Shown: positions 61,073 to 64,000 of the stretch, piece by piece
How positions within the stretch are numbered: the stretch's first letter is position 1
Layout: each line of letters opens with the position of its first letter
DNA from: a phage
DNA: 64,000 nucleotides
Direction: 5' to 3' (one strand)
Sequence record: PZ166176.1
The notes under the pieces: generated by a model
What the model saw: the letters and a program-made list of their open reading frames with translations, nothing else
Database searches by the model: none
What the model was told of the DNA's origin: nothing
Translations under genes and position numbers: made by a program

Positions 61073-61429
61073 ATGAAAAAACTAATCTTAGCCACATTGC
61101 TGGCTACCGTAAGCTTCACCACTTACGCTCAAAAATTTGTAGCAGTTAAAACAGATATTGGTAAAGATGTTGTGATCACAGGCAACAAGTTTTACTATAC
61201 ACCTGGGAATGGTGTTCTAGAAGAGTGCAAAGATGTTGAGGCATATACAGGAAAAGAAGATAACACGGAACGTCCTTTTTATTCGATTATAGCTACTTGC
61301 AAAAATGAAATAGTAGCTATTAAACAATACAAAGATGCCCCTGGAGGAGAATACTTATTAGTCAAGAATATTAAGAGTGAAAAAACTGCAAAGTTTACAG
61401 TAATTATTTTAAAAGGAGAAACGTTCTAA
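61073..61429 (+). CDS. secreted protein
   Basis: Start moved to the ATG after GGAGGG; signal peptide MKKLILATLLATVSFTTYAQ. Confidence 0.5.
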   Translation: MKKLILATLLATVSFTTYAQKFVAVKTDIGKDVVITGNKFYYTPGNGVLEECKDVEAYTGKEDNTERPFYSIIATCKNEIVAIKQYKDAPGGEYLLVKNIKSEKTAKFTVIILKGETF

Positions 61430-62568
61430 TGAAATACACTATTTTTGGAGATGTGGCTGTTGTAAATAAGGAATATGGTGTTGAAGCTAATAAACTTCCT
61501 GCTGGAGTTTGGGTTGTCAACTGCGATCCGCACGGTAACTACTCTTTAGTGCGTGGCGAAAGTTTCTCTCTTCCGAACACTCTTTATGGGGAAACTAAAG
61601 ATCGCGCCGCACATGTTATTAAAACATTTGCTCGTCGTAGTAAAGAAGGTAAAAATACTGGGGTGTTACTGACAGGCACAAAAGGCAGTGGTAAGACGAT
61701 GTTAGCTAAACTAATTAGCATGTCCCTAATGTCCACAGAAGGTTTAGGTATTCCAACCATTTTGGTTACACAGCCTTACACAGATGCTGGATTCTTAGAG
61801 TTTATGAGTAAAATTACAGATCGTGCTGTTGTTTTATTTGACGAATTTGATAAAGTGTATGCTAAGAAAGAAGATCAGGAAGCACTGTTGACCTTGTTGG
61901 ATGGAACAGGAAGTGGGAATAAACTTTACATCCTCACTAAAAATAGTGGTTATATCTCGGAATATTTTGTAAACCGTCCTAGTCGTATCTATTACAGTTT
62001 CAATTACGATAAACTGTCTAGTGAAACTATGTTAGATTACTTGGATAAGAACTTGGTAAATAAAAAGCACGTAGATAACTTCCAACGTTTATGGGATGTT
62101 AGTACAGAGTTGTCTTTTGATGTTATTCAAGGTATTGTAGAAGAATTGAATTTCTATCCAAAAATGACTTTTAAAGAATGTCTGGAAATGATGGGTATTT
62201 CTTTAGGCAACGATGCTAAATGGAATGTGGCTTCTATCGTAGCTAATGGCAAAACGCTGAAGGTGAATTGGATCAATAACTGGCACGACTTCACCCCTAC
62301 TAAGTTTTTGTCGGGTGCTTGTTCCCTGAACATCTATCTGCAAAGCTTGAAAGATGATGAAGTTGAAGCAATGGAAACCAACAGTTATGTTATCCTGGAT
62401 GAAGATGGTGATCCACATATTGATCTATGTGCAACGGCGGATGGTCTAACTTGTGATCTGATTGAAGGTGGTAAGATTCTGGTTATGAGCACTACACCAG
62501 GAAACACTCTGCGAGTGGTGCTGGAGCCTGTAACACAACGTTCCACCACACTGGGTAGCGTGTTCTGA
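61429..62568 (+). CDS. AAA+ family ATPase
   Basis: 379 aa; Walker A GTKGSGKT and Walker B VVLFDEFD. Confidence 0.6.
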   Translation: MKYTIFGDVAVVNKEYGVEANKLPAGVWVVNCDPHGNYSLVRGESFSLPNTLYGETKDRAAHVIKTFARRSKEGKNTGVLLTGTKGSGKTMLAKLISMSLMSTEGLGIPTILVTQPYTDAGFLEFMSKITDRAVVLFDEFDKVYAKKEDQEALLTLLDGTGSGNKLYILTKNSGYISEYFVNRPSRIYYSFNYDKLSSETMLDYLDKNLVNKKHVDNFQRLWDVSTELSFDVIQGIVEELNFYPKMTFKECLEMMGISLGNDAKWNVASIVANGKTLKVNWINNWHDFTPTKFLSGACSLNIYLQSLKDDEVEAMETNSYVILDEDGDPHIDLCATADGLTCDLIEGGKILVMSTTPGNTLRVVLEPVTQRSTTLGSVF

Positions 62569-62584
62569 TACAGCACAAATAACT

Positions 62585-62612
62585 AAACCCGCTTCGGCGG
62601 GTTTTGTTATAT
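62585..62612 (+). terminator. rho-independent terminator
   Basis: AAACCCGC-TTCG-GCGGGTTT hairpin followed by TGTTATATT. Confidence 0.65.
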
Positions 62613-62650
62613 TGACTTCAGACTTGTAGGGAGAGAGAGGATAGATAAAG

Positions 62651-63853
62651 ATGGCGAAGACGTTAGAACAGTATATAGGAGAATGTAAACCAATAGCGGA
62701 AGCTAAAGGATATGAGATTATAGGGATTGTAGAGCCATTTAAAGGTGTGCACACGAAGATGATCAACTTCTGCCCTAATCATGGGGAGTGGAGAACATCC
62801 ACATTTGCCAATTTTAAACGTGGTAAATCTGGTTGCCCTGGGTGCAAAAATGAGAAAGCAAGACAAGACAACAGTAAAAACCTAGATTATTACCTTTCGG
62901 AATGTAAGCCCATTGCTGAAGCTAAGGGAATCGAGATTTTAGGCATTAATGGAGAGTTTATAGGTGTACATACAAAGATGATCAACCTTTGTCCTGAGCA
63001 CGGGGAATGGCGAACATTAACATTTCATAATCTTAAGGGTGGTAGTGGTTGTCCTAAATGCGGTAACAAAAGATCTAGGAATTCTAAAATACTCCCAGAC
63101 GATCAGCACATACAAGACTTCATTAATACAGGAAAGTTTAAAGAGGGTACAATCTTCACTAAAACAGATAAAAAACGAGGCCGCGATTCTTTATGGTGTG
63201 TAGAGTGTCCTGCCTGCTCTCACGATGAGTATGTGCAAGCTGGGGTGTGTGATGGTAAGTTTTATGTCGCAGGGAATGACCTTAAACAAGGGAAGATTCC
63301 TTGCCGTTGTGCAACTAACTGTCATTACACAGAAGCACAGATTACCTATAGGGTAAAAAAGGCAGTAGAAAGGAAAGGGTATATCTGGGTAGGTTGGATC
63401 GGGAAACCGTCTGTAAGATTAGGTAAGTTTAAATATGGATGTAAGAAACATGGGGTACAAATAGGACGTGCCAGTGGTTTGTTAAATCATGGCACTGGTT
63501 GTCCGCAATGTGCTAACCAGACACAACAACAATGTTACATTAACCACATTCATGATGAACAAGGTATTCTCTGTGCTTTGAAATTTGGAATTGCCAATAA
63601 TAGTGATCGCCGTATCAAAAAACAAAATAGTCGTAATGTGTTTACTATGAAACAGGTCCAAGTGTGGCACTTCCCTACTGTGAAGCAATGCAAAGATGCA
63701 GAGAAGCGTTGTAAGCGTGTCCTTCACACGGAAGCAGTGAGCAAATATGCTATGCCAGATGGCTACACAGAAACAGTAGAGTTATCTTGCATGGCCTCAA
63801 TACAAAACATTTATAAACTTTATGGTGGAACATTACAGGAGGAAACATGTTAG
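62651..63853 (+). CDS. zinc-ribbon repeat protein with internal tandem duplication (possible nuclease-associated DNA-binding protein)
   Basis: 400 aa; two near-identical modules (ECKPIAEAKG-x-EI-x-G...GVHTKMIN-x-CP-x-HGEWRT-x-TF...GCP-x-CGN) plus further CxxC pairs. Confidence 0.5.
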   Translation: MAKTLEQYIGECKPIAEAKGYEIIGIVEPFKGVHTKMINFCPNHGEWRTSTFANFKRGKSGCPGCKNEKARQDNSKNLDYYLSECKPIAEAKGIEILGINGEFIGVHTKMINLCPEHGEWRTLTFHNLKGGSGCPKCGNKRSRNSKILPDDQHIQDFINTGKFKEGTIFTKTDKKRGRDSLWCVECPACSHDEYVQAGVCDGKFYVAGNDLKQGKIPCRCATNCHYTEAQITYRVKKAVERKGYIWVGWIGKPSVRLGKFKYGCKKHGVQIGRASGLLNHGTGCPQCANQTQQQCYINHIHDEQGILCALKFGIANNSDRRIKKQNSRNVFTMKQVQVWHFPTVKQCKDAEKRCKRVLHTEAVSKYAMPDGYTETVELSCMASIQNIYKLYGGTLQEETC

Positions 63854-64000
63854 TTGACGTTCAAATTATGCGCAATGAAAGGATGGACTTCTTTGAAGCA
63901 GTAGAGAAACATCTGATTCGATGGGACTATGAATTTGTTCCTGCTGGATGTGGACCAGTAGAGCATTTAGCGGAAGACGACGATGTATACATGATCATTC
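63847..64000 (+). CDS. 5' part of a CDS running off the window end
   Basis: ATG at 63847 (MLVDVQIMRNERMDFFEAVEKH...) open to the window edge; overlaps the upstream stop. Confidence 0.3.
   Translation, partial: MLVDVQIMRNERMDFFEAVEKHLIRWDYEFVPAGCGPVEHLAEDDDVYMII

Follow-up and report, generated by a model that had tools for sequence, protein, structure and literature searches.

A putative homing-type endonuclease with four tandem CapR/DUF723-type zinc-finger modules and a T5orf172-like domain in a variable slot of a phAPEC8-like coliphage

The DNA analysed here is a stretch of 64,000 nt (record PZ166176.1; hereafter the window) from a Phapecoctavirus, a phAPEC8-like coliphage, and this report concerns one gene near its 3' end. 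A complete open reading frame (ORF) with an ATG start occupies positions 62651..63853 of the + strand and encodes a protein of 400 aa, exactly where an earlier note, made from the letters of the sequence, had placed it. The gene is annotated already, as a 'putative endonuclease', and its family has been published: its product is 99.8% identical to WAX24837.1, the 'putative endonuclease' of phage vB_EcoM_DE16, and positions 61400-64000 of the window are 98.8% identical to that phage. The protein matches PHROG 681 'endonuclease' at 1e-77, NCBIfam returned nothing useful for it, and with 216 homologs at E<=1e-5 the ORF is intact and conserved in dozens of phages. No paralog of the gene was found within the window by tblastn or with a hidden Markov model of the family. 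The gene and the parts of its product are as follows.

62651..63853, + strand: ORF, a zinc-finger-array T5orf172-type putative homing endonuclease
62660..62851 (aa 4-67), + strand: module 1, a CapR/DUF723-type zinc finger with putative ligands C41-x2-H44 and C62-x2-C65
62879..63067 (aa 77-139), + strand: module 2, a tandem copy of module 1 with putative ligands C114-x2-H117 and C134-x2-C137
63098..63319 (aa 150-223), + strand: module 3, a canonical CapR homology domain, C186-x2-C189 ... C218-x-C220
63326..63520 (aa 226-290), + strand: module 4, a more divergent CapR/DUF723-type zinc finger, C259-x2-H262 ... C279-x2-C282
63521..63850 (aa 291-400), + strand: T5orf172/MUG113-like GIY-YIG-fold nuclease domain, assigned from invariant residues and an AlphaFold2 model

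Comparison with Pfam returned the CapR homology domain (PF21817) at 98.3 bits, against a cut-off of 24.2, in four stretches (aa 12-66, 84-137, 155-221 and 230-288), and DUF723 (PF05265) at 45 bits, against a cut-off of 20.9. When the stretches were scanned alone, modules 1 and 2 passed the CapR cut-off with 30.9 and 28.5 bits and gave 27.1 and 25.0 bits for DUF723, respectively; module 3 passed with 55.5 bits and module 4, at 21.5 bits, fell just under it. Module 4 can also be aligned with module 1 (30% identity, E=0.002). The 'more CxxC pairs' that the earlier note had seen after two duplicated modules are two further homologous modules, 3 and 4, and its suggestion that the modules resemble the DNA-binding parts of phage homing or nuclease-associated proteins agrees with the CapR and DUF723 matches and with a class of proteins already published (PMC8096241, PMC10448857). 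Modules 1, 2 and 4 share a CxxH...CxxC pattern and module 3 alone has CxxC...CxC, with 28 residues between its cysteine pairs as compared with about 24-26 in CapR. In an alignment of 64 homologs (26-73% identity), C186 and C220 of module 3 are invariant and C189 and C218 are kept in at least 90% of the sequences, as are C114, C134 and C137 of module 2. An AlphaFold2 model built on this alignment, with a mean predicted local distance difference test score (pLDDT) of 94.4, displays one pattern common to all four modules, a helix followed by strands, a short helix and a knuckle, with three strands in module 1. The array is predicted to bind zinc and DNA.

The remainder of the protein, aa 291-400, had been taken for a basic C-terminal region. 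Its isoelectric point is 8.8; in the AlphaFold2 model, however, it is a folded domain of nuclease type rather than a basic tail, and aa 294-390 take up, at very high model confidence, a complete GIY-YIG fold of beta-beta-alpha-beta-alpha-alpha order. Nine of its residues are invariant in the 64 homologs (Y296, K311, G313, R321, E351, D370, G371, E374 and T375), and the spacing, 8 residues from Gly to Arg and 53 from Arg to Glu, together with the predicted fold, suggests that Y296, K311-x-G313, R321 and E374 correspond to the GIY, YIG, Arg and Glu positions of the superfamily. Pfam T5orf172 is matched at E<=0.01 by 28 of the 64 homologs, and the counterpart in phi92, gp222, exceeds the cut-off with 20.2 bits. 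A Foldseek search with the whole model gave no match in the Protein Data Bank (PDB), and among predicted viral structures it gave 195 matches at E<=0.001, mostly to entries named 'CapR homology domain-containing protein' and some to GIY-YIG or T5orf172 proteins. Comparison of the 64-homolog sequence profile with all PDB chains yielded ribosomal protein L31, which was rejected as a zinc-ribbon match at chance level (E 0.15).

Modules 1 and 2 had been described as near-identical tandem copies resulting from a recent domain amplification. Formal alignment finds the repeat significant in both protein and DNA: aa 5-76 and aa 77-146 are identical at 48/72 positions (67%, E=2e-30), the 63-aa cores at 44/63 (70%), and ORF nt 31-175 and 250-394 (62681-62825 and 62900-63044 of the window) show 76% identity along 147 nt (E=4e-17). 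One copy follows the other at an interval of 219 nt, or 73 aa. The repeat is therefore real, although at 67-70% identity in protein the copies are far from near-identical. Over the 63 aligned codons the two modules are 67% identical in nucleotides; the proportion of synonymous differences (pS) is 0.72, which is saturated, that of non-synonymous differences (pN) is 0.23, and the ratio of the corresponding rates (dN/dS) is ~0.1, so that both copies are under purifying selection. The idea of a recent duplication was rejected on this synonymous divergence. Moreover, each module is 67% identical in nucleotides to its partner and likewise 67% identical to the single equivalent module of the tuntematon and vB_Ec-G1 alleles described below. 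Since the synonymous sites are saturated and the partner is no closer than the module of other alleles, the pair is either an old duplication, long kept by purifying selection, or an assembly from alleles that had already diverged. An origin of module 1 or 2 from a tuntematon-like or a vB_Ec-G1-like allele by unequal crossover was also considered; all pairs are about equally distant (62-67% in nucleotides), which favours neither source. Among 60 multi-module homologs, the window/DE16-type allele contains the most similar module pair, 68.8% as compared with a median of 37.5%.

The gene lies directly 3' of an AAA ATPase gene (61429-62568, + strand), and the slot between this gene and the next ORF varies greatly among related phages. 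Across 63 phage records the ATPase protein keeps an identity of 99% or more, and the nuclease ranges in the same set from 34 to 100%; phages whose ATPase proteins are 100% identical carry different nuclease alleles. The alleles compared all come from this slot, and they are 330-486 aa long with 3-5 modules.

vB_Ec-G1 allele: 330 aa, 3 modules
tuntematon allele (gp053): 332 aa, 3 modules
window/DE16 allele: 400 aa, 4 modules
phAPEC8 allele (phAPEC8_00253): 394 aa, 4 modules
ESCO5 allele (gp152): 402 aa, 4 modules
nieznany allele (gp136): 486 aa, 5 modules, 34% identity to the window protein

The other alleles share 34% to 74% protein identity with the window protein, between flanks that are ~98% identical in DNA. 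The borders are sharp: with respect to the nieznany-type locus the DNA is 97.9% identical up to 5 nt beyond the ATPase stop codon, the cassette is then wholly replaced, and identity resumes, at 97.6%, about 10 nt before the next ORF; the nuclease gene has thus had a history independent of its flanks. Within the gene, divergence from the vB_Ec-G1, tuntematon, phAPEC8 and ESCO5 alleles is graded, with the last 70 codons being 95-97% identical in DNA (pS of 0.07-0.14) and pS increasing to 0.52-0.66 in modules 3-4 and ~0.7 in modules 1-2. It follows from this gradient that recombination breakpoints lie inside the gene. The ESCO5 allele (L005, 1640-2890) is itself a mosaic, having a nieznany-type intergenic hairpin, modules 1-2 of its own, and modules 3-4 and a nuclease domain of the window type (86.6% nucleotide identity from ORF nt 446 onward), which indicates recombination at the level of modules.

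The same gene order extends beyond the genus. In phi92, which belongs to another genus, the ATPase, the nuclease and a NADAR-domain protein occur in the same order, and gp222, labelled 'endonuclease', has the same architecture as the window protein. In Klebsiella phage phi1_175008 (PP357458; L010, 2501-4008), of the same subfamily, the ATPase and a homolog of the downstream ORF (30% identity, E=2e-14) are separated by a 41-nt spacer that carries a hairpin, AAGCCCCGAAAGGGGCTT, and no nuclease gene; no other credible version of the slot without the gene was found. In every Phapecoctavirus and Justusliebigvirus record examined, except that of vB_EcoM_EP57, the slot is filled by an intact allele. 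In the EP57 record (OR544956, 130.7 kb; L007, 1501-3363) the ATPase and the downstream ORF are fused, and this record was rejected as a natural empty site: its junctions fall exactly at the cassette borders, there is a second deletion nearby and the genome is 20 kb too short, so that the gap is probably a drop-out of reference-guided assembly. As to presence and absence in related phages, a check that the earlier note had proposed, the slot is filled in every credible record within the genus, and one distant phage has a gene-less locus. The idea in that note of a mobile cassette fits the data, given the divergent alleles between conserved flanks, the near-constant ATPase and the gene-less Klebsiella locus.

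Three further records with 89-98% DNA identity to the locus, MG065650, OP562383 and OR584014, are labelled as Campylobacter phage B15, Acinetobacter phage ABPW7 and Pseudomonas phage PsgM04F, respectively, and these host labels look doubtful. Relatives of the AAA ATPase can be recognised among the large phages of Bacillus, Enterococcus, Staphylococcus and Lactococcus.

In the window itself, the following features lie at the two ends of the cassette.

62585..62614, + strand: terminator-like hairpin and T-rich tail, AAACCCGC-TTCG-GCGGGTTT, 3' of the AAA ATPase gene
62605..62613, + strand: possible extended -10 element TG-T-TATATT, a candidate seen by eye only
63837..63853, + strand: overlap junction, with an AGGAGG Shine-Dalgarno sequence at 63837-63842 and the ATG (63847) of the downstream 121-aa ORF

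The hairpin proper (62585-62604) has 8 bp and a UUCG loop, as RNA AAACCCGC-UUCG-GCGGGUUU, followed by a U-rich tail, and the 49 nt around it (62572-62620) fold with -18.2 kcal/mol, z = -4.8 relative to shuffled sequences, in agreement with the strong upstream terminator that had been noticed previously. The same hairpin is found with the vB_Ec-G1, tuntematon and phAPEC8 alleles, and a different hairpin occupies this place in ESCO5 and nieznany; the variable cassette has its 5' border region at the hairpin. Directly 3' of it, the TGnTATATT string that constitutes the candidate -10 element is kept in the intergenic regions of vB_Ec-G1 and tuntematon, and not in that of phAPEC8. A scan with the sigma-70 consensus, which bears on the separate transcription that the earlier note had put forward as a possibility, reported no promoter in the interval from the hairpin to the ATG of the nuclease gene.

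At the 3' end, the nuclease gene extends 7 nt into the next ORF, the Shine-Dalgarno sequence of which sits within the final codons Q-E-E-T-C-stop, and the nuclease gene is thus not an isolated unit at this end. Every allele, including the one of 34% identity, ends in E-E-T-C-stop, codons that also serve the next ORF as its Shine-Dalgarno sequence and start codon. Since a similar GGAGGA-N5-ATG is present at the corresponding point of the gene-less phi1_175008, the cassette appears to end at a ribosome-binding site of the downstream ORF that already existed. In DE16, the genes that follow are the 121-aa ORF, a 59-aa ORF and a NADAR-domain protein of 180 aa (L001, 9001-9543; Pfam, 1.8e-35), which is the third gene 3' of the nuclease and lies beyond the end of the window. 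The latter is labelled 'GTP cyclohydrolase II' in several records, probably a misannotation.

In light of its architecture and of the replacement of alleles in its slot, the gene probably encodes a homing-type endonuclease that is free-standing and belongs to the T5orf172 branch within the GIY-YIG superfamily. The four tandem zinc-finger modules at the N-terminus would most likely read an extended DNA site, and the C-terminal domain of GIY-YIG fold, with its invariant Tyr296, Arg321 and Glu374, would most likely cut the DNA beside that site. The gene would behave as a cassette, bordered 5' by the terminator hairpin of the ATPase gene and 3' by the ribosome-binding site of the downstream ORF: in a mixed infection, a genome with another allele, or with none, would be cut and then repaired from the genome carrying this allele. 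We propose that the very different alleles of 3, 4 or 5 modules lie between near-identical flanks because cutting and repair would replace one allele by another. The pair of modules 1 and 2, whether an old duplication or a product of unequal recombination between alleles, may add one reading unit to the array. Homing endonucleases tend to adjoin conserved genes, such as that of an AAA ATPase.

Several points weigh against this explanation. The gene-less Klebsiella phage is distant, its ATPase being 64% identical, and within the genus every credible record has some allele, which leaves no site that is truly empty in its DNA. Universal occupancy of the slot by intact ORFs would fit a useful, domesticated function equally well. 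The isolated C-terminal domain is below the Pfam cut-offs, with 18.4 bits as compared with 20 for T5orf172 and 20.0 bits as compared with 22.3 for MUG113.

In a second explanation, a real though minor possibility, the protein is a domesticated or weaponised nuclease and not a selfish homing gene. It would cut the DNA of co-infecting phages (marker exclusion) or of satellites, as Odn of phage ICP1 does, and its variable zinc-finger array would follow shifts in these targets. The presence of an intact allele throughout the Phapecoctavirus and Justusliebigvirus records examined, the invariance of the catalytic-type residues and the low dN/dS of the duplicated modules together look like long-term selection for function and would be expected from such a nuclease, as would a hypervariable DNA-reading part joined to a conserved nuclease end. 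Furthermore, Odn-like T5orf172 genes, for which an anti-satellite role has been proposed, occur in phages of this group, as in Mt1B1_P17 (PMC10448857). However, those genes bear a RepA_N domain and not a zinc-finger array, and competing homing endonucleases would also give turnover of alleles between identical flanks. In addition, a search of 5,426 complete E. coli genomes for a relative in a satellite or prophage returned no DNA similar to the nuclease gene, so there is no sign of a domain exchange between phage and satellite in the style of CapR and Odn. Mt1B1_P17 also has an allele at the locus described here; the gene treated in that paper is a different T5orf172 gene, the one with RepA_N, and of six phage names searched for in its supplements only Mt1B1_P17 was present (PMC10448857). 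Literature retrieved with phAPEC8 and 'homing endonuclease' does not, in the portions available, appear to address the gene in the slot.

A stronger form of the same idea, which we regard as unlikely, is that the slot, instead of housing a selfish element, is a fixed and fast-evolving 'specificity cassette', a nuclease whose modular zinc-finger array of 3-5 units, exchanged and duplicated among alleles, is selected for cutting rival phages or parasites. If true, it would be a programmable inter-virus weapon kept across a whole phage subfamily.

It is very unlikely, in turn, that the protein is a sequence-specific DNA-binding regulator that does not cut, with an array that represses or tunes transcription and a C-terminal domain that is an inactive relic. 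I-TevI acts as a regulator at its own promoter, the gene heads a run of small co-oriented ORFs directly after a terminator, and the T5orf172 match is below the threshold; CapR itself is a repressor derived from the same module family (PMC8096241). CapR, however, is wholly without a nuclease domain, whereas in this family the residues to be expected in GIY-YIG catalysis (Tyr, Arg and Glu) are invariant in homologs down to 26% identity and the complete fold is predicted with very high confidence. Finally, the significance of the repeat in both protein and DNA, the 216 homologs and the pLDDT of 94 exclude a chance or low-complexity resemblance between the modules and an ORF that is not a real gene.

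The value of the locus is modest, and lies in a clean natural series of alleles that occupy the same slot and have nearly the same nuclease end, with arrays of 3, 4 or 5 modules. Such a series could be used to decode the DNA specificity of CapR/DUF723 arrays and to test homing by T5orf172 nucleases.

The gene belongs to a class that has been described in other phages. The CapR zinc-finger domain was defined by Netter et al. 2021, who showed by gel shift that DNA binding depends on the four cysteines of the domain, and the ICP1 proteins Gp174, Gp165, Gp121, Gp53 and Gp130, with a CapR domain and a C-terminal T5orf172 domain, were described as putative homing endonucleases (PMC8096241). Barth et al. 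2023 found CapR, DUF723 or DUF4397 modules in 87% of 229 T5orf172 endonucleases and noted that the modules are often repeated and that recombination between repeats alters their number, for example in gp174 (PMC10448857). Of these proteins, Gp165 of the Vibrio phage ICP1 is collinear with that of the window along 351 aa (E=2e-31, 26% identity) and has four CapR stretches and a C-terminal T5orf172 domain (18 bits in Gp165); on account of this collinearity and of the same layout of four modules and one nuclease domain, the window gene is a member of the published CapR/T5orf172 class. ICP1 is nevertheless a Vibrio phage, whereas the window phage has E. coli as its host and belongs to the Stephanstirmvirinae lineage, and, unlike in the ICP1 proteins, three of the four modules of the window protein are of the CxxH...CxxC, DUF723-like variant. 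The ICP1 genes also vary by presence and absence among isolates, whereas the slot of the window is always occupied within its genus and varies by allele.

The repressor of the capsid operon encoded by PLE satellites, CapR, shares the PF21817 domain with the window protein and the CxxC...CxC motif with module 3 in particular, but it is a single-domain satellite-encoded repressor without a nuclease domain, whereas the window protein keeps a complete one. Odn of ICP1 has a nuclease domain of the same family and is the only T5orf172 protein for which nuclease activity dependent on the glutamate has been demonstrated (PMC10448857); it differs in having a RepA_N DNA-binding domain and no zinc-finger array, and what has been proven for it is a role in defence against satellites rather than in homing. 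I-TevI, which like the T4 Seg proteins is a classical GIY-YIG homing endonuclease, carries its nuclease domain at the N-terminus, where the window protein carries it at the C-terminus, and binds through a zinc-finger linker, a minor-groove helix and a helix-turn-helix rather than through an array of this kind; neither I-TevI nor the T4 Seg proteins have detectable sequence similarity to the window protein. The other Stephanstirmvirinae alleles, in turn, share both the slot and the architecture of the window allele and differ from it in the number of their modules, with 3, 4 or 5 in the array.

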